Positions 9,272 through 27,506 of a DNA stretch of 64,000 nucleotides are shown here, one piece after another. Origin of the DNA: an uncultured Verrucomicrobiota bacterium (GTDB lineage Bacteria > Verrucomicrobiota > Verrucomicrobiia > Limisphaerales > JAYPEY01); assembly GCA_964519245.1 (NCBI GenBank), contig CAZFLK010000008.1:5854-69853 (forward strand), read 5' to 3'. Position 1 is the first letter of the stretch. Every line of letters begins with the position of its first letter. Position numbers and translations under genes: made by a program. A model generated the notes under the pieces. The model saw only the letters and a program-made list of their open reading frames with translations, did not search any database and was not told where the DNA came from.

Positions 9272-9433
9272 CCGCCACATGGCGCGCGTTGTCAGTCCGG
9301 ACGGACCCACCCCGATTGAACTCTCATTTTCCGCTGCGCGGGAGAGTTCAAAATCCCCTCCGCGGAGGGGAACGGACTCGTGGAGGCGCCCAGCGTCGGG
9401 TAACCATCGACGGCCAACTGCTATATCCTCCGA

Positions 9434-10024
9434 ATGTCCGCTGCCGCTTCCAACGACGACATCGATTACGACGCGCTGATCCGCCGGACGCGCGCCGGCA
9501 ATCTCGCCGCATTCGAGTCGATTGTCCGACGGCTGGAGCGCCCTTTGCGGGCCTGGTTGGCAACCCATGTCTCGCCCGGCGTCGACGTGGATGAAATCGC
9601 GCAGCGGAGCTTCGTCATCGCGCATTCCCAACTCGAGCGCTTCAAGCCGGGAACCAATTTCCCCGCCTGGTTGTTTGCGATTGCTCGATTTCAGTTGAAG
9701 GCGGAACTGACGCGGTTGCGGCGGGTGGCGGACTATCACGCGCGGTTTGCGCCGGATCTGCTGCAACGGGAGCTCGAACGCCGGGCCGATGAACCTGGAG
9801 AGGAACAACAGGAGCGATTGGATTGTCTCAAGGAGTGCGTCGAGTCGCTGGGCGATAACCTTCGCCGCTATGTCTCTTGGCGTTATGAAGAGGAAATCCC
9901 GTTGGAAGCGATGGCGGAGCGGACGGGGCGTTCGGTCGGAGCGATCAAGAAACAACTTTGGCTGATCCGGCGCAAATTGCAGGAATGCGTGGAGGCGAAG
10001 ATGGGAATGAAAGGAGCAGGATGA
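9434..10024 (+). CDS. ECF-type RNA polymerase sigma-70 family factor
   Basis: The 196-aa sequence has a region-2-like part (FESIVRRLERPLRAWL, FPAWLFAIARF) and a region-4 HTH part (LEAMAERTGRSVGAIKKQLWLIRRKL). Resembles the Rhodopirellula/Verrucomicrobium ECF group. Confidence 0.8.
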   Translation: MSAAASNDDIDYDALIRRTRAGNLAAFESIVRRLERPLRAWLATHVSPGVDVDEIAQRSFVIAHSQLERFKPGTNFPAWLFAIARFQLKAELTRLRRVADYHARFAPDLLQRELERRADEPGEEQQERLDCLKECVESLGDNLRRYVSWRYEEEIPLEAMAERTGRSVGAIKKQLWLIRRKLQECVEAKMGMKGAG

Positions 10025-11691: not shown

Positions 11692-13038
11692 ATGATTCGC
11701 TTCGACAAGAGTGTTCTGCTTCTGATTGGTCTCTGCCATGCGCCGGCAGTCCCGATCGAAGCCGCTGAGAATGCGGTTTCTCCCGAAGGCCAGGTTCGTA
11801 TACACCGATTCAAGGGAGTGAATCGCTCCGTCTACGACGCGTTCGTCTACCTGAACCGGTTGCCTGAGAAACCACAGGATGGAGAACGGGCGTCGGACTT
11901 TGCGGGCCGCGTCTACGGCCGGCTCGCCAATCAGGAGGGGCGCATTCTCATCAAGTTGCCGCCTTCGATGAATCGCAGCGCCTACCGTGGATACAAGACC
12001 TTCATGGGTTCCGAGGGGGACGAACAGGTCCGCAATTGCGTGAGTTGCCATGCGCCGTCTGACTTCAAGGACGCGTCAACCCATGTGACCGATCGCAGCG
12101 GCAAGGCGAAACCCACGCCGGGCCTGCGCAATCTCAAGCAGAGCGAGGCCGAGCTGGCGGAGATCCTGCGCGCCAAGATTGTGGCGAGCTGGCATCGACA
12201 GACCGGAGCGATGAAGATTGACGAGGCCTACGACGCCATGGCCATCACCGAGAAAGACATTCCCGATCTGGTGGCCTTTCTGAAAACGCTTCGCGACGTT
12301 CCGGATGAAAGATTCCGACAACTGATCGTTGAAGCCGAGGTCACGGATGTGCTCGCGGAAGCCGGTCCGACAAAGGTGAACCCATCGACTGCATCGTCGG
12401 GCACGATCATGGGCGTGGCGCGGTTCGAAGGGCAACGGCCCAAGGCCAAGCCCGTACCCATGGACGGAGCCAGCCTCAAACTGCATAAGTCCCAACCGTT
12501 GGAGGAGAACGCGTTGATTGGTCCTGATGGCGCCTTGGCAAACGTCTTTGTCCAGGTGAAAAAGGGATTGGAACGCAGGGAGTACGAGCCGCCCAGGGAG
12601 CCCGTCTTGATGGACCAAATTGGTTCGGTTTTTCGTCCGCGTGTGCAGGGCATCATGGTGGGGCAGAAGTTTGTCATGCGGAACAGCGATCCCTTCATCC
12701 ACAACGTGCGTTCCATGTCCCTGCGCAATCGCGCCTTCAATGTCGCCCAGCCTCCGGGGACAGCCGATCGCGAGCAGACCTTTCGTCGTCGCGAAGGCCC
12801 GATCCGCATGGGCTGCGATTTCCACAAGTGGATGCGAGCCTACCTGTTCGTCGTGGAGCATCCCTACTTCGCGGTTACGGATGCGAAGGGGCAATTCGAG
12901 ATCAAGGGCCTGCCTCCCGATGAGTATGAGCTCGAGGCCTGGCATGAGGAGTTCGGCGAACTCGAAGCGAATGTGACCGTCGGCCCGGATGGCAAGGCGA
13001 CAGCGGAGTTCGTGTTTCAGTCGAAGAAAGAGGATTGA
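11692..13038 (+). CDS. secreted cytochrome-c-motif protein with a C-terminal cupredoxin-like/carboxypeptidase-regulatory-like domain
   Basis: Signal-like N-terminus. One CxxCH (NCVSCHAP). The C-terminal half (FVMRNSDPFIHNV...CDFHKWMRAYLFVVEHPYFAVTDAKGQFEIKGLPPDEYELEAWHEEFG) matches a widespread cupredoxin-fold family. Confidence 0.6.
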   Translation: MIRFDKSVLLLIGLCHAPAVPIEAAENAVSPEGQVRIHRFKGVNRSVYDAFVYLNRLPEKPQDGERASDFAGRVYGRLANQEGRILIKLPPSMNRSAYRGYKTFMGSEGDEQVRNCVSCHAPSDFKDASTHVTDRSGKAKPTPGLRNLKQSEAELAEILRAKIVASWHRQTGAMKIDEAYDAMAITEKDIPDLVAFLKTLRDVPDERFRQLIVEAEVTDVLAEAGPTKVNPSTASSGTIMGVARFEGQRPKAKPVPMDGASLKLHKSQPLEENALIGPDGALANVFVQVKKGLERREYEPPREPVLMDQIGSVFRPRVQGIMVGQKFVMRNSDPFIHNVRSMSLRNRAFNVAQPPGTADREQTFRRREGPIRMGCDFHKWMRAYLFVVEHPYFAVTDAKGQFEIKGLPPDEYELEAWHEEFGELEANVTVGPDGKATAEFVFQSKKED

Positions 13039-13046
13039 GCGGAATC

Positions 13047-15617
13047 ATGGAGTTCCAACACCAGGCAAGGCCCATCGGAGCGCGGACATCCTTGTCCGCA
13101 TGTTGCGTCCGAGTGTTCCGACGCGCGGACAGGGATGTCCGCGCTCCCTTTGCTGTTGTTGCCGTCTGCCTGATCGCAAGCGCCCCCCCGGCCATCGCCG
13201 CTACCCCCGACTTCCAATCCGCCGTCGCGCCCTTGATCGAATCGTCGTGCATCGACTGCCACGACGGGGACACGGAAACGAATCTGAACTTTGATTCCCT
13301 GGGCTTCAATCTCTCGGACGCCGACACCTTCAATGCCTGGGAGAAGGTCTTCGACCGCGTGGTGAAACACGAGATGCCGCCACCAAAGAAAAGGCAACCG
13401 AAGACCGACGTCCGGAACAAGGCCCTCGACGCCCTGCGCGACTCGCTCCACAAGTCCAACGCCGCCCGACAGACCAGGGAAGGCCGCGTTCCCGCGCGTC
13501 GCCTCACCCGGACGGAGTACGAGCATACGATGCGCGACCTGCTCGGCATTCACGCGAATCTCGCTCGGTTCCTCCCCGCTGAAAACGACGGCGCCGCCTT
13601 CGACACCATTTCCAGTGGTCAGGGTTTGTCCCCGGTCCATATCCAAGCCTACCTGACCGCCGCCGATCGCGCCCTGGACGAGGTGATCCAACTCGGCCGC
13701 AAGCCACGTTGGCGTGAGAAGCCCTATGATCTCGATTATGTCAACCGCCACTACATCAAGATGTGGTTCGACCGGCCGTTGCGAAACGGCGGGAGCACAA
13801 TCAAGCCGGAAGGGGACGAAGTCGTGACCTTCGAGAAGCGCAACCATTCCATGCGCTCGGACGCCGTCGGTTTCCGGCCCGCCTATCCTGGAATGTACCG
13901 CATCGAGATGACCGCGCGCGGTTATCAGGCCAAGACGCCTGTGACCCTTGCGATCATGAAGGCGAGCGACAAGGCGGGCGGATCGGAATTGGTCGGTTTC
14001 TACGATCTGTTGCCCGAGCAACCTCGCCGAATCTCGCTAACCACCTACTTTACGCCGGATCACTATTTCTATCCCATCCCGATGGATGACGATGTGGCCC
14101 ACGCTCGGGGCTATGGCGGCATTTACGCCTACGGCGCCAAGAAGTATCCCGGTGAGGGCGTGGCCTTGAAAGACGTGACGATCCGCGGGCCCTTGGAAAA
14201 GGAATGGCCGCCGAAACATACGCGGGAATTCTTCCACGGTGTCGGGTTGCGCCATCGCGAAGTGCGGGAGCAGGAATGGCGTCGCATCTGGCGACAAGGC
14301 GGGGAGCGGATACGTCTCTACGAATTCCAGATGTCAAAGCCGCCGCTGGAGCATCTCCGCGAAATGATCGAACGCATCGGGCCGCGGGCCTTGCGCCGCC
14401 CGTTGCAGGACGACGAAGCCCAGGCGTTTGCAAACCTGGCGAAACCGGCGTTGGAGGCGAAGCGCGGATTCGATGACGCCGCGCGCGTTGCCTTTCGCGC
14501 CCTGTTCAGCTCGCCGCAGTTTCTCTTTCACTCCGCTGAGCCCGGTCCCTTGAACGATTACGCATTGGCAACGCGATTGTCCTACTTTCTCTGGAAAAGC
14601 GCGCCGGATGACCAGCTGTTCCGCCTGGCGGGGGAAGGAAGACTGGTCGAGGAGAAGACCTTGTCCGCCCAAGTGAACCGGATGCTGAACGATCCCAAGT
14701 CCGCCCGGTTCGTGAGAGATTTTCTGGACCAGTGGATCGGGCTTAACCGCATCGACGCGACCACGCCCGATGACAAGCTTTACCCAGAATATGACGATAT
14801 ACTGCGCCAAGGCATGCTGGCTGAGACGCGCGCCTTCTTCCGCGAACTGATTGCGAGGAATCTTCCGGTGCGAAATCTGGTCGATTCCGATTTCACCTTC
14901 CTGAATCGCCGGCTCGCGGAGCACTACAGGATTCCCGACGTCGCGGGCGAGGCGTTGCGGCGCGTGGACTTGCCCTCGTGGAGTCCCCGCGGTGGATTGA
15001 TGACCCAGGCCAGTGTGCTGAAGATCACCGCGAACGGCACGACCACCACGCCGGTGAAGCGCGGCAACTTTGTATTGAGCACATTGCTGGGCCGCGCGGT
15101 TTCATCGCCGCCGCCGGCCGTAGAACCGATTGAACCCGACACGCGCGGCGCCACGACCATTCGCGAGCTTCTGGACAAGCATCGGAACGTCGAGAAGTGC
15201 GCGGTCTGTCATCGCAAGATCGACCCCCCGGGTTTTGCGTTGGAGAGCTTTGATCCAATCGGCGGCTATCGCACGCGTTACCGGTCAAACGAAAACGGCG
15301 ATCAGCCCGTCCGCAAGCTGCGCGGCCGTTGGATTTATGAGTACAAGCTCGGGCCGAAGGTCGATGCGAGCGGCACGACGGAGGAAGGCGAGGCTTTTCG
15401 CGACGTTCGCGGATTCAAGAAATTTATGCTGAAGCACGAGAAGGACATCGCCCGGAATCTCCTCGCCAACCTCGTCGCCTACGCCACCGGAGGTGAGATC
15501 CAATTCGCGGATCGCACGGAGTTGGACCGAATTCTCAAACGACTGGAGCCTGCGGGTTTCAACACGCGCACCATGATTCACGAGGTCGTGCAAAGCCGGA
15601 TGTTTCGAAACAAATGA
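13047..15617 (+). CDS. DUF1592/DUF1588/DUF1585/DUF1587/DUF1595-family protein with an N-terminal CxxCH
   Basis: ESSCIDCHDGD (CxxCH), RLSYFLWKSAPDDQL, LMTQASVLKITANGTTTTPVKRGNFVL, CAVCHRKIDPPGFALESFDPIGGYR are signature blocks of this PVC-typical family. The ATG at 13047 is preferred over the TTG at 13035. Confidence 0.85.
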   Translation: MEFQHQARPIGARTSLSACCVRVFRRADRDVRAPFAVVAVCLIASAPPAIAATPDFQSAVAPLIESSCIDCHDGDTETNLNFDSLGFNLSDADTFNAWEKVFDRVVKHEMPPPKKRQPKTDVRNKALDALRDSLHKSNAARQTREGRVPARRLTRTEYEHTMRDLLGIHANLARFLPAENDGAAFDTISSGQGLSPVHIQAYLTAADRALDEVIQLGRKPRWREKPYDLDYVNRHYIKMWFDRPLRNGGSTIKPEGDEVVTFEKRNHSMRSDAVGFRPAYPGMYRIEMTARGYQAKTPVTLAIMKASDKAGGSELVGFYDLLPEQPRRISLTTYFTPDHYFYPIPMDDDVAHARGYGGIYAYGAKKYPGEGVALKDVTIRGPLEKEWPPKHTREFFHGVGLRHREVREQEWRRIWRQGGERIRLYEFQMSKPPLEHLREMIERIGPRALRRPLQDDEAQAFANLAKPALEAKRGFDDAARVAFRALFSSPQFLFHSAEPGPLNDYALATRLSYFLWKSAPDDQLFRLAGEGRLVEEKTLSAQVNRMLNDPKSARFVRDFLDQWIGLNRIDATTPDDKLYPEYDDILRQGMLAETRAFFRELIARNLPVRNLVDSDFTFLNRRLAEHYRIPDVAGEALRRVDLPSWSPRGGLMTQASVLKITANGTTTTPVKRGNFVLSTLLGRAVSSPPPAVEPIEPDTRGATTIRELLDKHRNVEKCAVCHRKIDPPGFALESFDPIGGYRTRYRSNENGDQPVRKLRGRWIYEYKLGPKVDASGTTEEGEAFRDVRGFKKFMLKHEKDIARNLLANLVAYATGGEIQFADRTELDRILKRLEPAGFNTRTMIHEVVQSRMFRNK

Positions 15618-16849
15618 AAACCAACCGTCGCCAATTCCTCCGAGCCGCCGGCGTTTCGCTCGCTTTGCCTTGGCTTGAATCGTCCGGCCGCGCCGAGACG
15701 CCGCCGCCCAAGCGCGCGGTCTTCATCTGCACGGCGTTGGGCCTTCACCCCCCGTCGCTGTGGCCAAACAAGGCAGGCGCGGACTACGGCTCCACCGAGT
15801 ATCTCGACCTTCTCAAGGAACATCGCTCAGACTATACGCTGTTCTCCGGGCTCTCGCACCCGGACCAGGGCGGCGAGCACGAAACGGAGCGCACCTTCCT
15901 GAGCGCCGCGCGCAATCCCCAACAGGATGGTTTCCGCAATTCGATTTCCGTCGATCAGTTCGCCGCGGGCAAACTCGGCTATGTCACCCGTTTCCCCTCG
16001 GTGATCCTCAGCTCCAACGGCTCTTCGAGTCAGTCCTTCACCGGCGGCGGCGTCATGGTTCCGGCGGAGCACAGTCCCTCCCGCATGTTTGCCCGGATGT
16101 TCCTGAAAGGGAGCCCCGAGGAGATTGCCCGGCAAAAACAGAAGCTCGCCGATGGCCGAAGCGTCCTCGATGAGTTGATGAATCAATCCAAGGCCCTGCG
16201 CGGCAACTCGACCGCCGCTGATCAGGCCAAGCTGGACGAGTATTTCGAATCGGTCCGCAGGACCGAGCGCGACCTGCGCGAACAGCGCGCCTGGATGGAT
16301 CGCCCGAAACCGTCCGTCGAAGTCGAGCAGCCGAGGGACATCTACGACAAGTCCGACATGATCGGCCGCATTCGGTTGTTGATGAACCTTGTCCCGCTGA
16401 TCGTGCAGACCGATTCCTCGCGCGTCATTAGCGTGGTCATTCAGGACCACCTGACCATCCCGCAGGTGGCCGGCGTCGAGAGCGAGCATCACAACCTGTC
16501 GCACCACGGCAAGGAACCCGGGAAGATCGAGCAACTAAAGAAGATCGAAATCGCAATCCTGAAGCAGTTCGAAAGCCTGTTGTCGCAGTTGAAGGAGAAG
16601 TGCGAAGCCGGCGGTTCGCTGCTCGACAACACCATGACCTTGTTCGGCAGCAACCTCGGCAACGCCAATGCGCATGATCCCCGGAACCTGCCCATCTTCC
16701 TTGCGGGCGGCGGATTCAAACACGGCCGTCACGTGTCACACGATTCGCGCAACAACACTCCCCTGTGCAATCTTTACGTTCGCATGCTCCAGGAAATGAA
16801 CATCGAGATCGATTCGTTCGCCACCAGTTCCGGGGTGTTGAGCTGGTAG
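15614..16849 (+). CDS. DUF1552 domain-containing protein (partner of the DUF1592-family protein)
   Basis: Tat-like N-terminus RRQFLRAAGVSLALPWLES. FSGLSHPDQGGEHE, SEHHNLSHHGKEPGKIEQL, FLAGGGFKHGRH. ATGA overlap with the upstream gene. Confidence 0.85.
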   Translation: MKTNRRQFLRAAGVSLALPWLESSGRAETPPPKRAVFICTALGLHPPSLWPNKAGADYGSTEYLDLLKEHRSDYTLFSGLSHPDQGGEHETERTFLSAARNPQQDGFRNSISVDQFAAGKLGYVTRFPSVILSSNGSSSQSFTGGGVMVPAEHSPSRMFARMFLKGSPEEIARQKQKLADGRSVLDELMNQSKALRGNSTAADQAKLDEYFESVRRTERDLREQRAWMDRPKPSVEVEQPRDIYDKSDMIGRIRLLMNLVPLIVQTDSSRVISVVIQDHLTIPQVAGVESEHHNLSHHGKEPGKIEQLKKIEIAILKQFESLLSQLKEKCEAGGSLLDNTMTLFGSNLGNANAHDPRNLPIFLAGGGFKHGRHVSHDSRNNTPLCNLYVRMLQEMNIEIDSFATSSGVLSW

Positions 16850-17108: not shown

Positions 17109-18788
17109 ATGCTCCCCCTCAAACGTCATCATCAACTCGGCATCGCGACGCTTCTCTCGTCGTGCAGCCTCACGCCTTGCTACGCCGACGTCGCCTCAAA
17201 CTGGCATCAATGGCGTGGACCCGAACACAACGGTGTTTCCCGAACCGCCAATCCGCCGATCGAGTGGAGCGAAAGCAAGAATGTCCAATGGAAGACCGCC
17301 ATTCCCGGCGCCGGCAATTCCACGCCGATCGTCTGGGGCGGCAAGGTCTTTGTTCTGACGGCCATCAACACCGGCATCGTCGATCCGGGCCTCCCGAAGC
17401 CGGAGGATCAACCCCAGCGGGTCTTCGGCATCAAGCGCCCCAACACGACGCACTCCTTTTTCGTGCTTTGTCTGGACCGGGAAACGGGCCGTGAAATCTG
17501 GCGGCGCCGGGCGACCGACAACATTCCGCACCAGGGTCACCACAAGGACGCCTCCTTCGCGTCTTCTTCCCCGATCACCGATGGCGAGCGTCTTTACTGC
17601 TGGTTCGGGTCGACCGGTCTGTTCTGCTACGACCTCGATGGAAAACTTCTCTGGCAGCGCGATCTCGGCCATGTGCATGTCGGCGCCGATCTGGGAGAGG
17701 GAACCTCCCCCGCGCTGCACGACGGCAAACTCGTCATCGTCCGCGACCACGCGCGTCAGTCCTATATCGAGATGCTCGACGCCAGGACCGGCGACACGCT
17801 TTGGAAGAAGGATCGCGACGAGGACAACACCTGGGCGACGCCCGCGATCGTGAAGCATAACGGCCGGACGCAAGTCATCACGCCCGGCTCCAAGAAGATC
17901 CGCAGCTACGACTTGAATTCCGGCAACCTCATCTGGGAGTGCGGCGGCCTGACCGGCAATCCCATTCCTTGTCCGGTTGTGAAAGGCGACCATGTCATTT
18001 GCATGACCGGTTACAAGGGCCACTCCGTGATGTCGTTGCCGCTCTCGGCTGAGGGCGACATCACCGACTCGGATCAAATCAAATGGTCAAGAAATCGCGG
18101 GACCCCCTACATTCCTTCGCCGCTGCTCTATGACGGCCTCGTCTGGTTCAACCAATCCAACCAGGGCCTGTTGACCTGTCTTGACGCGGAGACGGGCGAA
18201 CCGCTCATTGATCGCCAGCGTCTGGGCCGCGTCCGCAACATGTACTCCTCGCCTGTTGGGGCGCAGGGCCGGGTCTACGTCACAGCTCGCGATGGAACGA
18301 CGCTGGCGCTCAAGAACGACAAGACATTCCATGTCCTGGCGACCAACAGGCTCGACGACTCCATCAATTCGTCTCCGGCGATGGCGGGCGATCAGTTGTT
18401 CCTGCGCGGCGATCGGTTCCTCTACTGCCTTTCAGCAAAGGCCGGGTCCAAGAAGCCAACGCTAAACATCCTCAAGGGCGACGAACGCTCCGTGATTCAG
18501 AAGGGCGCCGCGCGTCCGGCGACCAAACCCATGAAAGGCCCGAACGCGAAGCTTCTGGCAACGATCGATGCAGGTCCGATGCCCAAGGATTACCCCGGCG
18601 GCAAGGGGCACCAACCATGGGTCGACAGTTGGATGAAAAAGTTCAGCGAAGAACAACGCCACCAACTCGGCACGCTTTGGGCGGAGAAAATGCGCACCGA
18701 TCCCGCCATGCCGAATAAGGGCATGTCTTTCGTCAAGATCCTCAAGTACGTCCGTGAGAACGGGAAGAAACAGTCCGGCGACAAATGA
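17109..18788 (+). CDS. PQQ-like (BamB-like) beta-propeller repeat protein with the shared C-terminal module
   Basis: Signal peptide. WHQWRGPEHNGVS followed by repeated propeller blades (GKVFVLTA, ERLYCWFGSTGLFCYDLDGKLLWQ, DGKLVIV, GRVYVTARDGTTLAL, DQLFLRGDRFLYCL). The C-terminal 80 aa form the shared module. Confidence 0.8.
   Translation: MLPLKRHHQLGIATLLSSCSLTPCYADVASNWHQWRGPEHNGVSRTANPPIEWSESKNVQWKTAIPGAGNSTPIVWGGKVFVLTAINTGIVDPGLPKPEDQPQRVFGIKRPNTTHSFFVLCLDRETGREIWRRRATDNIPHQGHHKDASFASSSPITDGERLYCWFGSTGLFCYDLDGKLLWQRDLGHVHVGADLGEGTSPALHDGKLVIVRDHARQSYIEMLDARTGDTLWKKDRDEDNTWATPAIVKHNGRTQVITPGSKKIRSYDLNSGNLIWECGGLTGNPIPCPVVKGDHVICMTGYKGHSVMSLPLSAEGDITDSDQIKWSRNRGTPYIPSPLLYDGLVWFNQSNQGLLTCLDAETGEPLIDRQRLGRVRNMYSSPVGAQGRVYVTARDGTTLALKNDKTFHVLATNRLDDSINSSPAMAGDQLFLRGDRFLYCLSAKAGSKKPTLNILKGDERSVIQKGAARPATKPMKGPNAKLLATIDAGPMPKDYPGGKGHQPWVDSWMKKFSEEQRHQLGTLWAEKMRTDPAMPNKGMSFVKILKYVRENGKKQSGDK
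18546..18785 (+). other. shared C-terminal module, copy 1
   Basis: AKLLATIDAGPMPKDYPGGKGHQPWVDSWMKKFSEEQRHQLGTLWAEKMRTDPAMPNKGMSFVKILKYVRENGKK aligns with copies 2 and 3. Confidence 0.7.
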
Positions 18789-20596
18789 GCTTTAGACTGC
18801 TTCTTCTATTCTGCTTGTTGCCCTCAGCCGTCCTGTCGGCTGGGCGGCCCAATGTTGTCATCCTCCTCGCCGATGATCTTGGAACGAAGGACCTCGGTTG
18901 CTACGGCGGGCCGGTCAAGACGCCGGTGTTGGATGGACTCGCCGCCCGGGGCGTGAGGTTCACCGACTTTCATGCTGGCGCGGCGATTTGCTCGCCTTCG
19001 CGGGCGACCCTTCTCACCGGGCGGCAGCATCTGCGCACGGGCATTTACGGCGTGCTCCAGGATCACATGCACATCATGCACTTACTGGAGCGCGAAGTGA
19101 CGATTGCCGAAGTCCTCCAAGAGGCCGGATACGGAACGGCGCATTTCGGCAAGTGGCACATCGGGATGACTTCGGGCAAACGCAAGAAACCGTCGCCCAC
19201 CGAACACGGCTTTGATTACTGGTTCGGCCTGTCCAATGGCGCCCATCCCAATCACAAGGATCCGACCAACTTCCTGCGCAACGGCAAGCGGGTCGGCCCG
19301 ATGAAGGGCTACTCCTGCCAGATCGTGGTGAGTGATGCGATCAACTGGCTCGAAACGAAGGACGACCCCGATCAACCGTTCTTCCTGAACATCTGGTTCA
19401 ATGAGCCGCACGCCAAGATTGCCGCCCCGGACGACATCGTTTCGATCTACGGCGACGTGAAGGATGAAGCCGCGATCTATTCCGCCACGATCGACAACAC
19501 CGATCGCGCCATCGGACGGCTCGTCGCGAAGCTCAAGGCGATGGGCAAGCTCGACAACACCTTGATCATCTATTCCTCCGACCACGGAAGCTATCGTCCG
19601 GATCGCAACGGCGGCTTGAACGGCAACAAGGGTTCGAATTTCCAGGGCGGGTTGCGGTCGCCCGGCATCTTCTTTTGGCCCGACGGCATTCGCGGCGGCC
19701 GGACTGAAGCCACGCCTTCCGGCTCGGTCGACCTGCTGCCGACCATTTGCGGTCTGGCGGGAATCGACAAACCCGAGGGTGTGCATCTCGACGGAGCCGA
19801 CCTGTCGCCGCTGCTGACGGAGAAAGGAACGTTCTCCCGCGCCCAACCGCTGCTCTGGCTGGCGCCCTCATCCGGACATCTCGCAACCCTGCGCGACGGA
19901 CGCTACACGTTGATGGGATTTCGCGGCTATGACCTGCCCTTCGAGCGCGAGAAGCTCAACGCCATCCTGCGGAGAATGGCCGAACTTGCCGGGATTGATC
20001 CGTCGTCTCGAAACCTGTTGACCCGCGTGAGCAACACCACGTTTTCGAACCCCGAGTTCAGACGATTGACCGGCGAAAGAGTGCGCCTTCAGACCTTCCA
20101 GGAATCATGGATCCCCATTATCAGGAAAGGCGGCTTCCGGCGCTTCGCGCTTTACGATCTGAAGGCTGATCCCCTGCAGAAGAAGGACATTTCCCAGCAG
20201 CAGCCGAAAGTCACCGCGCGCCTCAAGGATAAGTTGCTGGAGCTATACGCGGATGTCATGGCCGATGCGCCCGGATTAGATGAATACCGTTCAGCCTATA
20301 CTCCTCCACCAGCCTCACGGGCCAGCGCCAAGCCAGCCCAGGTCAACATCCCACGGCCCGCGCCCAAGGACGTCGATCTCGACATGCTGTTGAAACGAAT
20401 CGAAACGACGGATCTGCCCAAGGGGTATCACGGCTCAACCCACCAGGCCTACGTTGATCGGCGAATGGCCGAACTCACCCCGCAACAACGTCAGCGCATC
20501 GGCCGGCTTTGGAAAGAGAAACGTCGCCTCCACCCAAACATGAAGAACGTCGGTGGATCGTTCGTGAAGATCATGGAATTCGTGGCCGGCCGGTAA
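18785..20596 (+). CDS. sulfatase (S1 family, canonical CSPSR) with the shared C-terminal module
   Basis: Signal peptide. PNVVILLADDLG, AAICSPSRATLLTGR, GKWHIG, IYSSDHG. ATGA overlap with the upstream gene. The C-terminal 71 aa form the shared module. Confidence 0.9.
   Translation: MSFRLLLLFCLLPSAVLSAGRPNVVILLADDLGTKDLGCYGGPVKTPVLDGLAARGVRFTDFHAGAAICSPSRATLLTGRQHLRTGIYGVLQDHMHIMHLLEREVTIAEVLQEAGYGTAHFGKWHIGMTSGKRKKPSPTEHGFDYWFGLSNGAHPNHKDPTNFLRNGKRVGPMKGYSCQIVVSDAINWLETKDDPDQPFFLNIWFNEPHAKIAAPDDIVSIYGDVKDEAAIYSATIDNTDRAIGRLVAKLKAMGKLDNTLIIYSSDHGSYRPDRNGGLNGNKGSNFQGGLRSPGIFFWPDGIRGGRTEATPSGSVDLLPTICGLAGIDKPEGVHLDGADLSPLLTEKGTFSRAQPLLWLAPSSGHLATLRDGRYTLMGFRGYDLPFEREKLNAILRRMAELAGIDPSSRNLLTRVSNTTFSNPEFRRLTGERVRLQTFQESWIPIIRKGGFRRFALYDLKADPLQKKDISQQQPKVTARLKDKLLELYADVMADAPGLDEYRSAYTPPPASRASAKPAQVNIPRPAPKDVDLDMLLKRIETTDLPKGYHGSTHQAYVDRRMAELTPQQRQRIGRLWKEKRRLHPNMKNVGGSFVKIMEFVAGR
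20381..20593 (+). other. shared C-terminal module, copy 2
   Basis: DMLLKRIETTDLPKGYHGSTHQAYVDRRMAELTPQQRQRIGRLWKEKRRLHPNMKNVGGSFVKIMEFVAGR. Confidence 0.7.
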
Positions 20597-20677
20597 GAAC
20601 GCAAATGAAAGCAACGGAAGGAAGCCGTAAATTTGAGCCAAGTCCTCCTCGGCCAACCGGCTGATGCTGACGCTCAT
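20597..20677 (-). pseudogene. truncated ParE/RelE-type toxin remnant
   Basis: The ATG at 20677 overlaps the antitoxin stop (ATGA). The first ~20 codons (MSVSISRLAEEDLAQIYGF) look like a ParE N-terminus. The rest of the 80-aa ORF is the antisense of the sulfatase 3' module and has no toxin features. Confidence 0.45.
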
Positions 20678-20922
20678 TTCCGCGCCAATGATCGACCCTG
20701 TTCCCAGATTCCCTTGAGAACCTTGGGAGTGAGCTTGCGATGCGAGCTGTCCTTGCCAACCTGGATCAAGGAATCGAATTCGTCGGGATGATCGGGCAGT
20801 TCATAGGCCTGCAAAATCACCAATTTGCCACCCCGCACGATAACGGTCGGTTTTCCTTCAATCGCTTGATCGGCCAATTGCCCCAGCTTTCCCTTCGCTT
20901 CACTGACAGTGCAGGTTTCCAT
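20674..20922 (-). CDS. Phd/YefM-like type II antitoxin (apparently orphaned)
   Basis: METCTVSEAKGKLGQLADQAIEGKPTVIVRGGKLVILQAYE is a typical Phd/YefM-type N-terminal fold signature. 82 aa. Confidence 0.6.
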   Translation of the reverse strand: METCTVSEAKGKLGQLADQAIEGKPTVIVRGGKLVILQAYELPDHPDEFDSLIQVGKDSSHRKLTPKVLKGIWEQGRSLARK

Positions 20923-20924
20923 AA

Positions 20925-20952
20925 CGGTCCAAATTTGGCCATTCGTGGACCG
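20925..20952. promoter_or_regulatory. candidate operator palindrome upstream of the antitoxin gene
   Basis: cggtcca (20925-20931) and tggaccg (20946-20952) form an inverted repeat. It partly overlaps a perfect 10-bp palindrome, ccaaatttgg (20929-20938), that begins 7 nt upstream of the antitoxin ATG. Confidence 0.25.
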
Positions 20953-21189
20953 GAGTCAAATATCGTGGAATGGTAAGAAACTGATTCAACCCTCACTTGG
21001 ATGCTGCTTTGGGTATTCAGTGTCCTCCGTGGTTGTTTGCAGTCAGCTATTGAGGCGTTCACTGAATTCTGATCGTTTTCTCCGGTAACCATTTCACTCC
21101 GAGTGATATTCCCTCTAAACCATTGTGACTGATCCGCAGTCCCAGCCGATCCAACGTAGTCAGATAAACGAGGACAGAAATCGAACAAC

Positions 21190-23190
21190 ATGAAGACACT
21201 CAGCCTCCTCTCCCGCGGCGTTTTCTTGGCGACGCTCTTCGCGCTGGTCTCACCCGCGGAAGCCAAATCACTCACCGGCAAAGTGGTCAGCGCCGAGGGC
21301 GGACCCATGGGCGGCGTCATGATCAGCGCCTTTGACGAGAAGCATCGCAAATGGGTTTCCGTCTTCAGCAAGAAGAACGGTTCCTACCAGCTCGATGGAC
21401 TCCGCGAGGTTGAGCACGAAGTTCGTGCGCGATTGTTGGGCTTTGTCGATGAATGGCGCGAGGATATCCAACCGGGACGCGACACGGTGGATTTCAAGAT
21501 GAGCCCGGCCACGGGTTACGACCTCGAGGAACAACGTCCGGCCAATAGCGGGTTTGCCATGCTCAAGTTCGACAGCATGCGCGACAAGCTGAACTTCAAG
21601 ATGATGTGCAGCTACTGCCATCAGATCGGGACCATCCCTTTCCGCACGCCCGAGAAGCCCGTCGACTGGGAGACCATGCTGCGACGCATGGATGGCTTCG
21701 GCGGGCTCTATCCGCACCTTCAGGAACAGATCATCCCGCGCATCATCGACACCTACAAGGACGCGGCCGTCGAGAAGTGGCCGAAATACGTCCCGCCGCC
21801 GCCGCCGTCCGGCACGGCCGCCAAAGTGCGCATCACCGCCTGGGAATTCGGCGAACAGTTCGAAAGCTCATTCCACGATCTGGAGTTGGGGCCGGACGGA
21901 CTCGTCTACGTCGTCAACATCAGCAAGCACTACCTGGGCGTCCTCGACACGAAGACCGGCAAGCAGGAGCAGTTCAAGATGCCGCGCGGCTCCTGGGGGC
22001 CGCACTCCATTGAACCGGACCTGGACGGGCACATGTGGATCACGCTCTGCGCCTCCGGCCAGATGGGCAAGTTTGATCTCAATACCCGGAAGATCACCGC
22101 CTACTCCAGCGCCGAGGCTCCCGCAAAGCGCGGCTCCTATCCGCACACACTGCGCGTCGACCCCAAGGATCCGGAAGGGTTGATCTGGTATACCGACGCC
22201 GGCCGCAATTCGGTCTTCTCCATGCATCCGAAGACCAAAGCCGTGAAGGAGTATCACCTGCTCAGCGAAGGGCAGGCGGTTGGCGCGGGCAAGGGCGAGT
22301 CACGCGGCATCACGCCCTACGGCCTGGACTACTCGCCCATCGACGGAATGATCTGGTATTCCAAGCTGAACGGAAACCGCATCGGCCGCATCGATCCCAA
22401 GGCGCCGGACGGCGACGTGAAGGAATGGAATCCGCCTTTCCGCGGTCCGCGTCGATTGCACATCGCGCCGAACGGGATCATCTGGGTCCCGGGCTTCGGT
22501 TCCGGCGTGCTGGGCAAGTTTGATCCCAAATCCGAGAAGTGGACGGTTTACGCCCTGCCCGATTCCGAGAATCAGATTCCCTATGCGCTCAACGTCGATC
22601 CCAAGGGCTTCGTCTGGGTCTGCGGCACGGGCAACGACACGATCAACCGCTTCGATCCCAGGACCGAGCGCTGGGTTGAGATCCGCCTGCCCATGCGCGT
22701 CAGCTACACACGCGAGATCGAGTTCGACGAGGAAGGCAATGTCTGGACGAGCACCAGCGGACCTTCGCGTCACATGGAGCGCGCCCTCGGTCAGGTCATC
22801 AAGATCGAGGTTCTTGAGGATCAAGGCGATGGAGTGAAGTTGGCCAAGGTCAATCTCACCGGCGACATGCTTGGCGCGCTGACGGCCGAGAACAAACCCA
22901 AGCCCATGGGAAAACGTCGCTACACCCCGCTGCCGAAGAATCCGCCCAAGGCGCGGAAGATCGACCACAAGCTGCTGGCGCACATCGAGAAGAACGTGAA
23001 ATTGCCGGAAGCCTATCTGAAGTCAAAGCACCAGGACTACGTGGACAAGCGCATGGCTGGATTCAACCAGCGTCAGCGCGAACGCCTTGGCCGGCTTTGG
23101 CAGGATAAACGCAAGGCCGCGCCCAAGATGAAGAACGCGGGTCATTCGTTCGTGAAGATCCTGGAGTTCGTGGGTGAGAATGTGAAGTAG
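21190..23190 (+). CDS. secreted multidomain protein: carboxypeptidase-regulatory-like N-domain, CxxCH motif, Vgb/SMP-30-like beta-propeller, shared C-terminal module
   Basis: Signal peptide. LTGKVVSAEGGPMGGVMISAFDEK...GSYQLDGL (CarboxypepD_reg-like). MMCSYCHQIG (CxxCH). Repeated blades: GPHSIEPDLDGHMWIT, PHTLRVDPKDPEGLIWYTD, PYGLDYSPIDGMIWYS, PRRLHIAPNGIIWVPG, PYALNVDPKGFVWVCG. Confidence 0.6.
   Translation: MKTLSLLSRGVFLATLFALVSPAEAKSLTGKVVSAEGGPMGGVMISAFDEKHRKWVSVFSKKNGSYQLDGLREVEHEVRARLLGFVDEWREDIQPGRDTVDFKMSPATGYDLEEQRPANSGFAMLKFDSMRDKLNFKMMCSYCHQIGTIPFRTPEKPVDWETMLRRMDGFGGLYPHLQEQIIPRIIDTYKDAAVEKWPKYVPPPPPSGTAAKVRITAWEFGEQFESSFHDLELGPDGLVYVVNISKHYLGVLDTKTGKQEQFKMPRGSWGPHSIEPDLDGHMWITLCASGQMGKFDLNTRKITAYSSAEAPAKRGSYPHTLRVDPKDPEGLIWYTDAGRNSVFSMHPKTKAVKEYHLLSEGQAVGAGKGESRGITPYGLDYSPIDGMIWYSKLNGNRIGRIDPKAPDGDVKEWNPPFRGPRRLHIAPNGIIWVPGFGSGVLGKFDPKSEKWTVYALPDSENQIPYALNVDPKGFVWVCGTGNDTINRFDPRTERWVEIRLPMRVSYTREIEFDEEGNVWTSTSGPSRHMERALGQVIKIEVLEDQGDGVKLAKVNLTGDMLGALTAENKPKPMGKRRYTPLPKNPPKARKIDHKLLAHIEKNVKLPEAYLKSKHQDYVDKRMAGFNQRQRERLGRLWQDKRKAAPKMKNAGHSFVKILEFVGENVK
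22966..23187 (+). other. shared C-terminal module, copy 3
   Basis: HKLLAHIEKNVKLPEAYLKSKHQDYVDKRMAGFNQRQRERLGRLWQDKRKAAPKMKNAGHSFVKILEFVGENVK. Confidence 0.7.
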
Positions 23191-23238: not shown

Positions 23239-23432
23239 GGCCCAACGGGCCGACTCTATGTCAGCCCAGGCCAACGGCCTGGGAAACCGAATCGCCACAA
23301 AAGCAGAGCCCCAACGGGGCGGCCCTACGAGCGGCCAAGGATGTCATAGGGCCGCCCCTTTGGGGCTCCAGAATCGATAATGCACAACCCGGGGAGCTGC
23401 CTTGGGCTGACATAGGGCTGGCCCGTTGGGCC
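23239..23432. repeat. ~195-bp nested imperfect palindrome built from GSCCC-NNN-GGGSC mini-hairpins
   Basis: The outer arms (23239-23270 and 23400-23432) pair as 13 + 12 perfect bp. The inner arms (23306-23328 and 23346-23368) match at 21 of 23 positions. Local hairpin cccaggcc-aacg-ggcctggg at 23265-23283. Confidence 0.6.
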
Positions 23433-23497
23433 GGAATCCTGCACAAGAACTCCGAAGACGCGGCATATCCTGTTCGACTGATCAACCTCAACAAACC

Positions 23498-24268
23498 ATG
23501 AACAAATCCCTTCCCATTCTCGCGGTCCTGCTGTCGTGCGCAGCCTTGGCGACCGCCGTGTTCAACCGCCCTTCGTCAGTCGGTTCGACGAACACGTCTT
23601 CCACGGCCGCATCCGATCAAACCGGTCTCGCCGAACTCAAGAATGAGATCGCGCAACTCAAGACGGCCAACGCGGCGCTGAAGGCGCAACTCGCCGAGAT
23701 GAACAGCAAGCCCTTGCGCATCGTGGACAACACGCTCGAGGTCCAGGCCCTTGGCGAACGCATCGCCAAGCTGGAGAGCTCCCAGAGCGAGGTGATCGAG
23801 GCGGTGAATGAGACCGACAAGTATGGCGTTATCGCCGCGATGGAGAAGGAGATCGCCAGCGCCTACACGACGCTCATGGACGCCGAGCAGTCCGCCGGAG
23901 CGCGGTTGAAACAGGTCGGACAGTTGAAACGTTACGGCTACTTCGACGAGAAGGCGTTGAAGGCTGTGACCGACATCTACGCAGGCACGGACGATTTCAA
24001 TCAGAAAGGCGCGGCGTTGCGGGCGATGACGGGATCGATCACGCCGCAGATCCGCGATCAAATCCTCGCCGATCTGAGCGCCGAGGTCGAAGCCGGCAAC
24101 AAGTCCGGACGGTACCGCTACTACGCCATCGAGGCCCTGGAGCCTTTGGCCAACGATCCAACCGTTCAAGAATGGCTTGGCCATCTCGCCCAGAACGATC
24201 CCGAACCAAAGCTGGCCGCCCGAGCCAGTCAGGCCTTGGGTGGAGATCCAGCGCCACGTAGGAAGTAG
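23498..24268 (+). CDS. hypothetical membrane-anchored/secreted protein (coiled coil plus HEAT-like C-terminus)
   Basis: The ATG at 23498 gives MNKSLPILAVLLSCAALATAVF. A heptad-like stretch (LAELKNEIAQLKTANAALKAQLAEM) follows. No family recognised. The ORF-track start at 23426 lies inside the palindromic element. Confidence 0.55.
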   Translation: MNKSLPILAVLLSCAALATAVFNRPSSVGSTNTSSTAASDQTGLAELKNEIAQLKTANAALKAQLAEMNSKPLRIVDNTLEVQALGERIAKLESSQSEVIEAVNETDKYGVIAAMEKEIASAYTTLMDAEQSAGARLKQVGQLKRYGYFDEKALKAVTDIYAGTDDFNQKGAALRAMTGSITPQIRDQILADLSAEVEAGNKSGRYRYYAIEALEPLANDPTVQEWLGHLAQNDPEPKLAARASQALGGDPAPRRK

Positions 24269-24305
24269 ATTCACTCTTCGTCACCCTCCCCGTTTTTCGC
24301 ATTCC

Positions 24306-27300
24306 ATGAATTCTCGCGCATTACTTTCAATCTTTGCACTGGCGGCAACTGCGGCGACGACGTCCGCCGCGCCACAACCCGCCACGATCGGTCACCCTTC
24401 CTTCCTCAGCCCGCACTCGCGTCCCATTGCCATTCACGACAAGCATGTTTTCGTCGCGAACACGCCAGCCGATACGGTCGATGTCATCGAAAGGACATCG
24501 CGGAAAGTCGTTCGACGCATCGACGTCGGCATTGACCCGGTCAGCGTGGTGGTGCGTCCGGATGGAAAAGAGATCTGGGTCGCCAATCACGTGTCGGACT
24601 CGGTGAGTGTCATCGATCTGGATTCAGCCAGTCCAACCCGGTTTCACGTCGTTGCCACGGTTCAGGATCTGGACGCCAGATCAAAGGCCACCCGATTCGA
24701 TGAACCGGTCGGCATCGCCTTCGCCAACAATCAAAAGGCCTACGTGGCTTTGTCCTCAGAGAACAAGATCGCGGTCGTCGATGTGGCTTCCCGCAAGGTC
24801 ACGAAGCGTCTGAACATCACGGCGCAGGATCCGCGCGCGATCGCGGTTCACGGCGACCGGCTTTACGTCGTTCCGTTCGAGTCAAACAACAAGACCCAGT
24901 TATCCGGGGGAGCGAAAGAGAAGATCGACGGCGACCTGGTGACCTTCGACGCCTGGGAACATTCCATTCGCGTCAACAACGTCCTGTCCATCGGGCACAG
25001 GACCGACATCGTGAAACATCCGCGCGTGCCGGATCGCGACCTGTATGTCTTCGACACGAAGACCGACAAACTCGTCAAGACGGTGGATACGTTGGGCACC
25101 TTGCTTTACGGGCTGGCGATCGATTCGAAAGGCAGCGTCTTCATCGCCCAGACGGATGCGCGCAACGACGCCAACGGCCGGGCCGGCACAAAGGGGCACG
25201 GCCTGAAGGAACTGGAGAATCGCGCCTTTCTGAATCGGATCACAAGGGTTGATTTCGATGGCGCCGCCGCCAGGAAGCCAAAGTTCATCGAGCTTGAGCC
25301 GCTTCCGCCGAATCATCCCGATGACGATCAGGCGTTGGCCACCCCGTTTGCCATCCGGGTGAGCAAAGATGGCTCCACCTTGGTCGCGACCGCGGCGGGG
25401 TCTGACAAGTTGTTCACGGTTGATGCCGCGAGCGGGAAAGTGCAGGGGCGCGTGGAGGTCGGCTCCGTGCCGCGAGGCATTGCGCTGGAATCCGACGAAA
25501 ACGGCAAACCCGAACGGGCATGGGTGTTGAACGCCGTGGACAACTCCGTCTCGGTGGTCGATGTCAGCGAGTCAATCAAACTTCGCGTCACGGCGACGAT
25601 CCCGTTGAACGATCCGACTCATCCAGCATTCAAGCGCGGTCGCATCGCCTTCAACAAGGCCGCCGCCTCGACGACCGGCACGTTCTCCTGCGCCAGTTGT
25701 CATCCCGACGGGCACACGGACCAGCTTCTGTGGGTGCTGCAGACGCCGGTCGTCACGCGCGGCAGCCAGATCATGCCGCGTTCCACGATGCCCGTGCGCG
25801 GCCTGCGCGACACCGAGCCTTACCACTGGGACGGCATTCCCGGCGATCCCTACGGCGGCATCAACAGCGCCAGCGTCCGCAAGCACGTCCCGCCCAACTG
25901 CGATGTCAACGTCCCTGAAAGCGCGACACGGCACCTGATCGACGGAGGGCTCGCCGCCACGATGGCCATGGTCGGCGACAAGACCAAGAACGACGAAGGC
26001 AAGCCCGGCCGCCTCACTGCGAAGGAGCGGGATGACATGGCGAAGTTTCTTCTGAACGTCACCTATCCGCCCGCTCAACGGCGGGCCTACGACAACGAGT
26101 TGTCGACGGGGGCGCGTCGGGGATTCGAATTGTTCAACATCATTGGCGACATTGGCAACAAGCCTGGGACCATGCATTGCGGCAACTGCCACCGCATGCC
26201 GTTCTGGGTGAGCACCAATACCCGCGGTTCAGGCATGGACGCCCCGACCTGGCGCGGCGCCTACGATCGTTTCCTGATCCTGCCGCAGGGGCGCCTGAAC
26301 ATCATTGGCTTTCCCTTCTATCGACGCATCGCCGATGGCGGACAGAATGAGCGCGACATTTGGCGCATGTCCTGGAGCAGCCGCAAGGCGTTCGATCCGG
26401 TTTGGAACATGGTCCTCGAGGGCAGCACGGGTTTCTCGGGTTCTCTGGGCAGGCAAACCACGTTGAACAAACAGACCGCGAAGGAGGAGCTCAACGCCGA
26501 TCTGCTAGCGGCATTGGAGAAATCGGCTTCGGAAGGCGGCGTGGTCCTCCAGGTCGAAGGCGCGTTCATCAACGACAAGAAGGTCAATGCGACAAGGCTG
26601 CAATTCCGAGATGGCGTTTACTTCGACGCCGCGAATCCAGACAAGACCTATCCCCGCAGGCGACTCATCCAACTCGCGTCGACCGGCAGGTTCGTAGGCA
26701 CATTCACCGGACGCCACGGGGAGAACGACGACTACGACCACCCGCAACCCGCGCTCTGGACGCGCGGGCCGATCCACACGCAACGCGGCAAGCAGGAGTT
26801 CCCCAAGCTCTATGGCGACAACCGCACCATGAAGGTCAGCGGACGGCACATTCGTGAAGGAGCGCATATCATTGTCGACGGTCGCCGGGTTTCCGGAACC
26901 ATCCGCATTGCCGGGAAAGACAATGTGGACATTGCCCTGGATGAGCTTCCCGAATTTGGCCTGCATTTCATCCAGGTTCAGAATCCGAACGGCCTGTTCA
27001 GCAACGATTTCATCTTCCACGTCACGGACGGACCGGAGAAAGCCGCCGAATTGCAGACGGCCCTCGAGGCGGCCGTCGCTTTGGGAGACCTCGAGGAAGC
27101 CAAACGGTTGATCGCTCGAGGCGCGAAGATCAATGCGCTGGCCAGGGAAAGCGGATCTCCCATGAGCACGGCTGCCTACCACGGCCGCATGGCAATGCTG
27201 CGACAATTGCTCGCGGACGGCGGCAATCCCAACTTCGAGAATCGCGATGGCAATACTCCGCTTCACGTCGCCGCGTTTGCCGGCGAGATTGAAATCGTGA

Positions 27301-27506
27301 AGTTCCTGCTCGCGAAGGGCGCGTCGACGGCCAAGCGCAATCGCAATCGGCAAACCGCCGCCGATATCGTTGCCGGTGAATGGAGCGAGGAGACCGCGGG
27401 GATCTATCGCGCCATCGGGGATGCGACCGGACGCGAGTTCGACCTTGATCACATCCGTGAGATCCGCCCCAAGGTTGCCAAACTTCTCAACTCCCGTTCG
27501 AAGTAA
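24306..27506 (+). CDS. secreted multidomain protein: YVTN-type beta-propeller, two CxxCH motifs, IPT/TIG-like segment, C-terminal ankyrin repeats
   Basis: The ATG at 24306 gives the signal peptide MNSRALLSIFALAATAATTSAAP. YVTN-like repeats (VFVANTPADTVDVIERTSRKVVRRIDVGIDPVSVVVRPDGKEIWVANHVSDSVSVIDL). FSCASCHPDGHTDQLLW and MHCGNCHRMPFW. Ankyrin repeats (NRDGNTPLHVAAFAGEIEIVKFLLAKGAS). Confidence 0.7.
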   Translation: MNSRALLSIFALAATAATTSAAPQPATIGHPSFLSPHSRPIAIHDKHVFVANTPADTVDVIERTSRKVVRRIDVGIDPVSVVVRPDGKEIWVANHVSDSVSVIDLDSASPTRFHVVATVQDLDARSKATRFDEPVGIAFANNQKAYVALSSENKIAVVDVASRKVTKRLNITAQDPRAIAVHGDRLYVVPFESNNKTQLSGGAKEKIDGDLVTFDAWEHSIRVNNVLSIGHRTDIVKHPRVPDRDLYVFDTKTDKLVKTVDTLGTLLYGLAIDSKGSVFIAQTDARNDANGRAGTKGHGLKELENRAFLNRITRVDFDGAAARKPKFIELEPLPPNHPDDDQALATPFAIRVSKDGSTLVATAAGSDKLFTVDAASGKVQGRVEVGSVPRGIALESDENGKPERAWVLNAVDNSVSVVDVSESIKLRVTATIPLNDPTHPAFKRGRIAFNKAAASTTGTFSCASCHPDGHTDQLLWVLQTPVVTRGSQIMPRSTMPVRGLRDTEPYHWDGIPGDPYGGINSASVRKHVPPNCDVNVPESATRHLIDGGLAATMAMVGDKTKNDEGKPGRLTAKERDDMAKFLLNVTYPPAQRRAYDNELSTGARRGFELFNIIGDIGNKPGTMHCGNCHRMPFWVSTNTRGSGMDAPTWRGAYDRFLILPQGRLNIIGFPFYRRIADGGQNERDIWRMSWSSRKAFDPVWNMVLEGSTGFSGSLGRQTTLNKQTAKEELNADLLAALEKSASEGGVVLQVEGAFINDKKVNATRLQFRDGVYFDAANPDKTYPRRRLIQLASTGRFVGTFTGRHGENDDYDHPQPALWTRGPIHTQRGKQEFPKLYGDNRTMKVSGRHIREGAHIIVDGRRVSGTIRIAGKDNVDIALDELPEFGLHFIQVQNPNGLFSNDFIFHVTDGPEKAAELQTALEAAVALGDLEEAKRLIARGAKINALARESGSPMSTAAYHGRMAMLRQLLADGGNPNFENRDGNTPLHVAAFAGEIEIVKFLLAKGASTAKRNRNRQTAADIVAGEWSEETAGIYRAIGDATGREFDLDHIREIRPKVAKLLNSRSK

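Follow-up and report, generated by a model that had tools for sequence, protein, structure and literature searches.

Carbohydrate-binding modules (CBMs) are non-catalytic domains carried on flexible Pro-rich linkers at the N-terminus, at the C-terminus or between other domains, sometimes in several copies, and they are attached to many unrelated catalytic folds acting on one substrate class. Dockerins (PF00404), of about 70 residues, are joined by linkers to many different co-operating exoenzymes and consist of duplicated Ca-binding F-hand segments (two tandem segments of ~22 residues). The E2 peripheral-subunit-binding domain (E3_binding, PF02817) is a small, basic, two-helix domain (~35–50 amino acids, aa) set between flexible Ala/Pro/Lys-rich linkers in a cytoplasmic multi-enzyme system, and it binds its partners largely by charge. 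Exported enzymes are tethered to glycopolymers, anionic or of the cell wall, by small helical domains such as SLH (PF00395) and PG_binding_1 (PF01471), which may lie at either terminus. Planctomycetota and Verrucomicrobiota are specialists in sulfated polysaccharides, and their marine members are major degraders of sulfated algal polysaccharides. The 'Planctomycete-specific' PSD1-5 and PSCyt1-3 domains (Pfam PF07624–PF07637) have been discussed in the literature (PMC5615132). Here, a module of ~72 residues is described that ends three neighbouring exported proteins in a 64,000-nucleotide stretch (hereafter the window) of contig CAZFLK010000008.1 from an uncultured Verrucomicrobiota bacterium. 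It constitutes a new domain family, and it may tether its carriers to a shared anionic ligand.

A shared C-terminal module in three exported proteins

The three carriers are encoded on the + strand, and plausible signal peptides can be read at the start of each translation. Carrier A (17109–18788; 559 aa) is an exported PQQ_2-type beta-propeller protein (Pfam PQQ_2, a BamB-type propeller, E = 4.7e-28). Carrier B (18785–20596; 603 aa) is an exported Cys-type sulfatase (Pfam Sulfatase, E = 2.2e-62) in which the CSPSR motif is visible. Carrier C (21190–23190; 666 aa) is an exported protein that combines CarboxypepD_reg, the heme-c motif CSYCH and a Vgb_lyase/SGL-like propeller (E = 8.6e-24). The first-pass annotation had proposed that the last 71–80 residues of these proteins align almost without gaps, which is borne out by alignment and BLASTP: the copies occupy 18546–18785 in A (residues 480–559; isoelectric point (pI) 9.7), 20381–20593 in B (residues 533–603; pI 10.7) and 22966–23187 in C (residues 593–666; pI 10.2), and 26 columns of their alignment, in which there are one or two gaps of a single residue, are invariant. 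Protein identity is 42–48% for A/B and A/C and 56% for B/C. In a six-frame translation of the whole window, each copy used as a query retrieves both others with E-values of 4e-14 to 3e-21, and the next best match has E = 0.3. Searching every reading frame of the 64 kb with a hidden Markov model (HMM) built from these copies reveals no fourth one, in agreement with the earlier statement that the module is absent from the other sulfatases and other secreted proteins of the window.

A low-complexity linker precedes each copy (boundaries are approximate and were drawn by eye). It is Pro/Lys/Ala-rich ahead of copy A (18438–18545), Pro/Ala-rich ahead of copy B (20297–20380) and Pro/Lys-rich ahead of copy C (22885–22965). 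None of the three copies has a hydrophobic tail; both features, linker and missing anchor, had been pointed out before and recur in all three. Copies B and C also contain the identical nucleotide runs reported earlier, one of 12 nt (at 20501 and 23089) and one of 15 nt (at 20558 and 23146), which encode the conserved residues GRLW and SFVKI. Over the whole module, nucleotide identity is 65% for B/C and 54–56% for A/B and A/C.

Family status, predicted structure and sequence features

The module could not be assigned to a named domain when it was first noticed, and the library searches agree. Pfam-A and NCBIfam give no meaningful match to the three window modules: the best is YozE_SAM_like at E = 0.0043 (17.7 bits against a cut-off of 25), and the rest is noise. 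No recurrent Pfam family emerges from 18 diverse module copies scanned singly. A sequence profile search of the PDB has a best E of 0.29, while Foldseek searches with the predicted module have a best E of 0.98 (PDB) and 0.81 (BFVD), with a root mean square deviation above 9 Å. No description of the module was found in the literature. When 1.84 billion cluster representatives were searched exhaustively with HMMER, 137 clusters scored E ≤ 1e-3, and 102 of them E ≤ 1e-10. The family is therefore genuine but rare; it is new, and the libraries searched yielded no relative of it in sequence or structure.

The structure prediction of the module alone that had been suggested for it gives a confident four-helix domain. 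With an alignment of 18 sequences, AlphaFold2 returns for copy A a compact fold with a mean predicted local distance difference test score (pLDDT) of 89.2 and a predicted template modelling score (pTM) of 0.78; the helices span residues 2–9, 19–32, 35–51 and 58–72. The same fold reappears in a longer construct, in which the module has a pLDDT of about 90 and the remainder is poor. The module is thus predicted to fold autonomously as four helices. A relationship to acyl or peptidyl carrier proteins was considered and rejected: there is no PF00550 match, and none of the 50 best PDB hits that Foldseek lists (all E ≥ 0.98) is a carrier protein. Moreover, the Gx[S]F of the module lies at the start of helix 4, with a Ser that is only 60% conserved, whereas the serine of the carrier GxDS motif lies at the start of helix 2.

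Near-universal columns of the module are L3, I7, P13, Y16, H22, Q23, V26, D27, L44, G59, K/R64 and I65. They contribute to three motifs, HQx[YWF]VD in helix 2, GxLW in helix 3 and Gx[S]F[VI][KR]I in helix 4. The net charge has a median of +5 (median pI 9.9) and is positive in 129 of the 136 distinct copies. Basic charge is kept in all module contexts, with basic residues at columns 6, 29, 38, 40, 49, 50 and 64. Several conserved acidic and basic columns lie two to four residues apart on the same predicted helix.

Occurrence and domain architectures

Further occurrences, which the first-pass annotation had proposed to seek, are numerous. More than 200 contigs carrying the module were collected by three independent routes: a protein query with the module of B, a search with aligned C-type propellers, and a degenerate DNA motif encoding HQx[YWF]VD...LW...GxxFVKI, for which counts are minimum numbers among the matches listed. 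All are from metagenome-assembled genomes (MAGs) or single-cell genomes, and many isolate names suggest marine samples. Nearly all bear Planctomycetota or Verrucomicrobiota labels; among the 80 loci retained after the search with the propeller, 53 are labelled Planctomycetota, 25 Verrucomicrobiota, one Kiritimatiellia and one 'Alphaproteobacteria'. Labels such as Alpha- or Deltaproteobacteria and Methanobacteriota also occur (L014, L015, L130, L133 and L170), and the 'Alphaproteobacteria' locus L015 shares 82% identity with window protein C. These oddly labelled contigs are probably mis-binned public MAG contigs. Relatives of the window proteins are annotated merely as 'arylsulfatase [Verrucomicrobiales bacterium]' or 'BamB'.

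Among the motif-scan matches listed, the carriers include at least about 50 Vgb-like proteins, at least about 35 sulfatases, and at least about 15 each of DUF1080 and PQQ-like proteins. Other carriers are proteins with two- or three-fold DUF1080, exported Gfo/Idh/MocA oxidoreductases, a DUF1080-module-GH29 fucosidase-F5/8C protein and a SASA esterase, as well as beta-lactamase-fold, trypsin-like, HEAT and EF-hand proteins. DUF1080 is the 3-keto-disaccharide hydrolase family, as shown for BT2157 (PMC8121099). The common theme of the carriers is exported enzymes that process glycans or sulfate esters, together with redox proteins.

Domain architectures were read from stop-to-stop open reading frames (ORFs) of the genome contigs, translated with the standard bacterial code. 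In what follows, MOD denotes the module, SULF a sulfatase, VGB a C-type Vgb-lyase-like propeller, SP a signal peptide, and CYTC the cytochrome c half of the protein encoded at 11692–13038 in the window. SULF-MOD-PQQ-CYTC is found at 18 loci (e.g., L008, 4246–8184), PQQ-MOD-VGB(-MOD)-CYTC at nine, SULF-MOD-CYTC at eight and CYTC-MOD-CarboxypepD_reg at four, and there are also DUF1080-MOD-SULF (P0042) and SULF-SULF-MOD-SULF (P0055) proteins. Well over half of the copies from related loci are internal, and the linkers that follow internal modules are of low complexity without signal-peptide remnants. The module is also C-terminal on DUF1080-MOD and Gfo/Idh/MocA-MOD proteins, and it stands first after the signal peptide in P0049 (SP-MOD-PQQ), P0080 (SP-MOD-VGB) and P0075. 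Since modules occur N-terminally after signal peptides, gene fission must have taken place on either side of the module. L010, initially taken for another N-terminal example, is SULF-MOD-PQQ with an in-frame stop. Two modules per chain also occur, for instance in VGB-MOD-cytochrome c-MOD and PQQ-MOD-VGB-MOD proteins, while MOD-DUF1592 fusions are rare.

The most constant module carrier is the C type, in which the module directly follows the propeller in 75 of the 83 propeller ORFs; three of the remaining ORFs are truncated at the end of a contig. At 46 loci VGB-MOD continues into a tail of ~170 residues with a CxxCH motif, and at 11 loci into the other type of cytochrome c. In P0160 and P0100, which have the VGB-MOD-tail architecture, the tail matches the TIGR02603 'putative heme-binding domain'. 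The module itself is not part of that domain: the model spans residues 149–283 of P0160, the module occupies residues 50–122, and it has no CxxCH. The propeller of the window protein with its CSYCH (21190–22965) is 64% identical to its Planctomycete counterparts (L008, L011 and L013), with hundreds of invariant columns. This is an unusually high cross-phylum identity, which suggests either that constraint is strong or that the cluster has been transferred laterally. Two loci (L015 and L017) encode SP-MOD-VGB-MOD proteins. In these loci, a second, tandem Vgb-like paralogue with a normal module at its N-terminus bears a degenerate module copy (LDKHFKKRMASF; L017, 9707–9928; L015, 3275–3493) without the HQxYVD motif.

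Gene borders beside the module are very labile, even between relatives sharing 90% identity or more. When proteins are clustered at 90% identity, for example, A and B group with a PQQ-MOD-CarboxypepD_reg protein (P0252, 769 aa) and a SULF-SULF-MOD protein (P0260, 1144 aa).

Age and selection

The orthologous modules of A and B in L001–L003 are about 84–90% identical to those of the window, as against 42–56% between the window paralogues, and a C-type fragment (P0002) is, from a reading of both sequences, a near-identical orthologue of copy C. Module consensus sequences specific to each carrier type persist across phyla. Because orthologues are far closer than paralogues and carrier-type consensus sequences cross phyla, the module copies are old and evolve with their hosts. 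The identical runs in B and C fall on conserved residues and thus give no sign of recent gene conversion. Terminal copies have ratios of non-synonymous to synonymous substitution rates (dN/dS) of 0.03–0.17 against their orthologues, including pairs with an unsaturated dS of 0.5–0.9, and the values for copy B are 0.08–0.13; the terminal copies are under purifying selection. A-type modules are about 85% identical, while the A propeller domain is merely 70% identical.

The conserved gene cluster

Most carriers belong to one gene cluster that is conserved in Planctomycetota and Verrucomicrobiota (e.g., L003, L008, L011 and L035–L094). Its members are an extracytoplasmic function (ECF) sigma factor and a FecR anti-sigma factor, whose genes flank it, a sulfatase, a PQQ-like propeller, a cytochrome c, a Vgb-like propeller, a PSCyt/PSD (DUF1592) protein and a DUF1552 protein; Planctomycete clusters additionally encode a DUF1559 pseudopilin-like protein and an FGE-type sulfatase-modifying enzyme. 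The sulfatases of the cluster are repeatedly fused to propellers and c-type cytochromes. In the window, the cluster extends from about 9.4 kb to 29 kb or, in a wider delimitation, over 9404–31531, and the following members lie on the + strand. The ECF sigma factor (9404–10021) and the FecR-type anti-sigma factor (9958–11385), together at 9404–11385, both have homologues in Planctomycete cluster loci. They are followed by the cytochrome c and CarboxypepD_reg protein (11692–13038), the halves of which are elsewhere fused after the module or separated by it. The PSCyt/PSD protein of the DUF1592 family (13035–15617) and the DUF1552 protein (together 13035–16849) are both constant cluster members. 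Downstream of carrier C are an acidic coiled-coil-like protein with a lipoprotein-like N-terminus (23426–24268; pI 5.3; no Pfam match), a secreted YNCE-propeller/CCP-like (di-haem-peroxidase-like)/ankyrin protein (24177–27506) and a sulfatase without the module (27519–28955). The last two correspond to a single protein with the module at its end in P0052 (1637 aa) and P0060 (1182 aa).

The acidic protein directly follows VGB-MOD in the window and in L003, L017 and L018, and lies nearby in L020, all of which are Verrucomicrobial. It was missing from all Planctomycete loci examined; in these, the VGB carrier continues into the heme domain. A universal partnership between this protein (23426–24268) and the module was rejected, as the protein is confined to Verrucomicrobial loci; it is unrelated to the HEAT-repeat carrier P0046.

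Successive genes of the window overlap by four bases of stop and start codon at 18785–18788 (ATGA, the A/B junction), 13035–13038 and 15614–15617, an arrangement compatible with translational coupling. The interval from carrier B to carrier C contains a Phd/YefM-type antitoxin gene (20674–20922, − strand), adjoined by an 80-codon ORF (20435–20677, − strand) that is antisense to the last codons of B and matches no family. The 2-kb block around the antitoxin gene has a lower GC content (0.569), and in L003 both carrier genes abut without the insert. The region 20435–20922 looks like the remnant of a toxin-antitoxin system inserted into the operon.

Proposed role and alternative explanations

We tentatively favour a role in which the module would be an autonomous, non-catalytic accessory domain on the flexible linkers of exported enzymes, with each copy binding the same anionic target, such that the module-bearing enzymes would be held together at one place. 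The target would most likely be a sulfated or acidic glycan, either a polymeric substrate or a polymer of the cell envelope. A binding or tethering function is suggested by the independent predicted fold, the linkers, the occurrence at any position in the chain, the retention and duplication in fusion proteins, the unrelated carriers, the selection on terminal copies and the conserved positive charge. Retention and duplication in fusion proteins in particular would fit the binding of a third party through several attachment points. The preference for an anionic ligand follows from three observations: the carriers centre on the degradation of sulfated glycans, the module persists in fused carriers, and no repeated receptor scaffold was found. 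Several points speak against such a tether. To our knowledge, nearly all known CBMs are beta-sandwiches, and the predicted helical fold would be unusual for one. Some carriers (HEAT, EF-hand, trypsin-like and cytochrome c proteins) are not obviously related to glycans, and the commonest context, propeller-module-heme domain, could point to a redox-related role. The closely spaced charged residues of the module may form internal salt bridges instead of a ligand site, and the degenerate copy in L017 lacks HQxYVD.

The principal rival, which is possible but to our minds doubtful, is protein–protein docking, in which the module would bind a partner, a scaffold or another module and so build a multi-enzyme complex, much as a dockerin or an E2 binding domain does. 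The carriers are operon neighbours, up to three in a row, that are fused together in other genomes (a Rosetta-stone pattern); the module, small, basic and predicted to be helical between Pro/Ala/Lys-rich linkers, recalls the E2 binding domain; and an acidic coiled-coil protein (pI 5.3) lies next to VGB-MOD in Verrucomicrobial loci. Against docking, the module is kept even where carriers are already covalently fused, and the acidic protein is missing from every Planctomycete locus examined. No protein with repeated receptors appears among the conserved neighbours (ECF sigma, FecR, DUF1559, FGE, DUF1592 and DUF1552) of about 210 loci. AlphaFold modelling of the module with its adjacent heme domain yields no confident packing (pTM 0.35), although this is a weak test, as the heme domain itself is poorly modelled without heme. 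A narrower idea, that the module docks cytochromes and that X-MOD, X-MOD-cytochrome c and X-cytochrome c are interchangeable, is weakened by the VGB-MOD-cytochrome c-MOD proteins and by carriers without a cytochrome.

In a bolder and rather improbable form of docking, the module would be the docking element, with a new fold, of an undescribed, 'cellulosome-like' multi-enzyme machine of marine Planctomycetes and Verrucomicrobia under ECF-sigma/FecR control. Such a machine would comprise sulfatases, sugar-oxidising and propeller enzymes and c-type cytochromes, and would link electron transfer to the desulfation of sulfated algal glycans and to their oxidative cleavage.

It is unlikely that the module is a structured spacer or hinge, that is, a rigid element between the Vgb-like propeller and cytochrome c that was spread by fusion and fission and of which the terminal copies are near-functionless leftovers. 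Its constant place directly behind the Vgb-like propeller, ahead of a TIGR02603-type CxxCH tail or another cytochrome c, and the lability of the neighbouring gene borders would be expected of such an element. Leftovers, however, should not be under purifying selection, as the terminal copies are, nor should the A-type modules be better conserved than the A propeller domain. Modules also stand N-terminally after signal peptides and on hydrolases without a cytochrome partner, and their basic charge is conserved in every context.

The extreme C-terminal position of all three window copies, on proteins with signal peptides, might suggest a sorting, secretion or anchoring signal after the manner of PEP-CTERM, LPXTG or the C-terminal domain (CTD) of the type IX secretion system (T9SS). 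Sorting through a free C-terminus is effectively excluded by the internal and N-terminal copies, and the module has no hydrophobic segment and a predicted fold that is helical rather than a beta-sandwich. Least credible of all is a similarity due to chance, assembly artefact or recent gene conversion: beside the identical runs in B and C stand the E-values within the window, 137 public clusters, more than 200 independent contigs, a window nucleotide identity of merely 54–65% and orthologous copies that are far more alike than paralogous ones.

The functional part of the first-pass annotation fares unevenly in the light of this evidence. The class of explanation that fits best is still docking, tethering or partner binding, whereas sorting, which had been listed alongside, does not stand. 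The idea of a common tag on co-operating exoenzymes holds insofar as the carriers are neighbours in a conserved cluster and are fused elsewhere, but the module is not intrinsically C-terminal and is carried by far more than these three exoenzymes. Module shuffling or gene conversion is not supported as a recent event (orthologues at 84–89% identity against 42–56% for the window paralogues), and a local assembly artefact is contradicted by the further occurrences.

The new family could become an entry of Pfam or InterPro. It links proteins with unrelated annotations ('arylsulfatase', 'BamB' and 'c-type cytochrome') into one functional set, and exposes a cross-phylum gene cluster with recurrent sulfatase-propeller-cytochrome fusions; much of the exported enzyme machinery of marine Planctomycetes and Verrucomicrobia is unannotated. 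If the module is a tether or docking element, it would provide a handle on the enzymes recruited to one site, a bait for the ligand or partner, and a portable tag of small size for use in biotechnology. Were it only a spacer, it would be just another new domain of unknown function.

Comparison with known systems

The module is unlike the C-terminal signals PEP-CTERM, LPXTG, GlyGly-CTERM and T9SS CTD in that it is not obligatorily C-terminal, has no hydrophobic tail and is predicted to be all-helical. The PSD and PSCyt domains resemble it in being restricted to the Planctomycetes-Verrucomicrobia-Chlamydiae (PVC) group, in having no known function, in their variable domain combinations and in their presence in the same cluster, on the DUF1592 protein (13035–15617). 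The module does not match those models, is much rarer, and, apart from the rare MOD-DUF1592 fusions, sits on enzymes instead of PSCyt proteins.

With dockerins, the module shares its size, its linkers and its attachment to many different co-operating exoenzymes. There is no PF00404 match, however, and the column profile of the module contains neither an internal duplication nor the D/N-rich loops that would correspond to paired F-hand segments. No cohesin-like scaffold occurs among the conserved neighbours of about 210 loci, and, unlike a dockerin, the module frequently lies between other domains and persists where proteins are fused. The E2 peripheral-subunit-binding domain is likewise small, basic and helical, and is set between similar linkers in a multi-enzyme system; the module is twice its size (four predicted helices in ~72 aa), has no sequence match to PF02817 and is exported. 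Any resemblance between the two would be functional only.

SLH and PG_binding_1 are comparable as small helical domains that tether exported enzymes to anionic glycopolymers from either terminus. The module matches neither family in Pfam, occurs as a single copy as opposed to the SLH triplet, and has its own motif, HQxYVD ... LW ... GxSFVKI. In behaviour, it is also like the CBMs, being non-catalytic, attached by flexible Pro-rich linkers, placed at either end or between domains, sometimes present more than once and joined to many unrelated catalytic folds acting on one substrate class. It differs from them in its predicted all-helical fold, almost all CBMs being beta-sandwiches, and in having no Pfam CBM match. 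A new domain family here appears to fill a role that looks familiar, namely that of an accessory targeting module.

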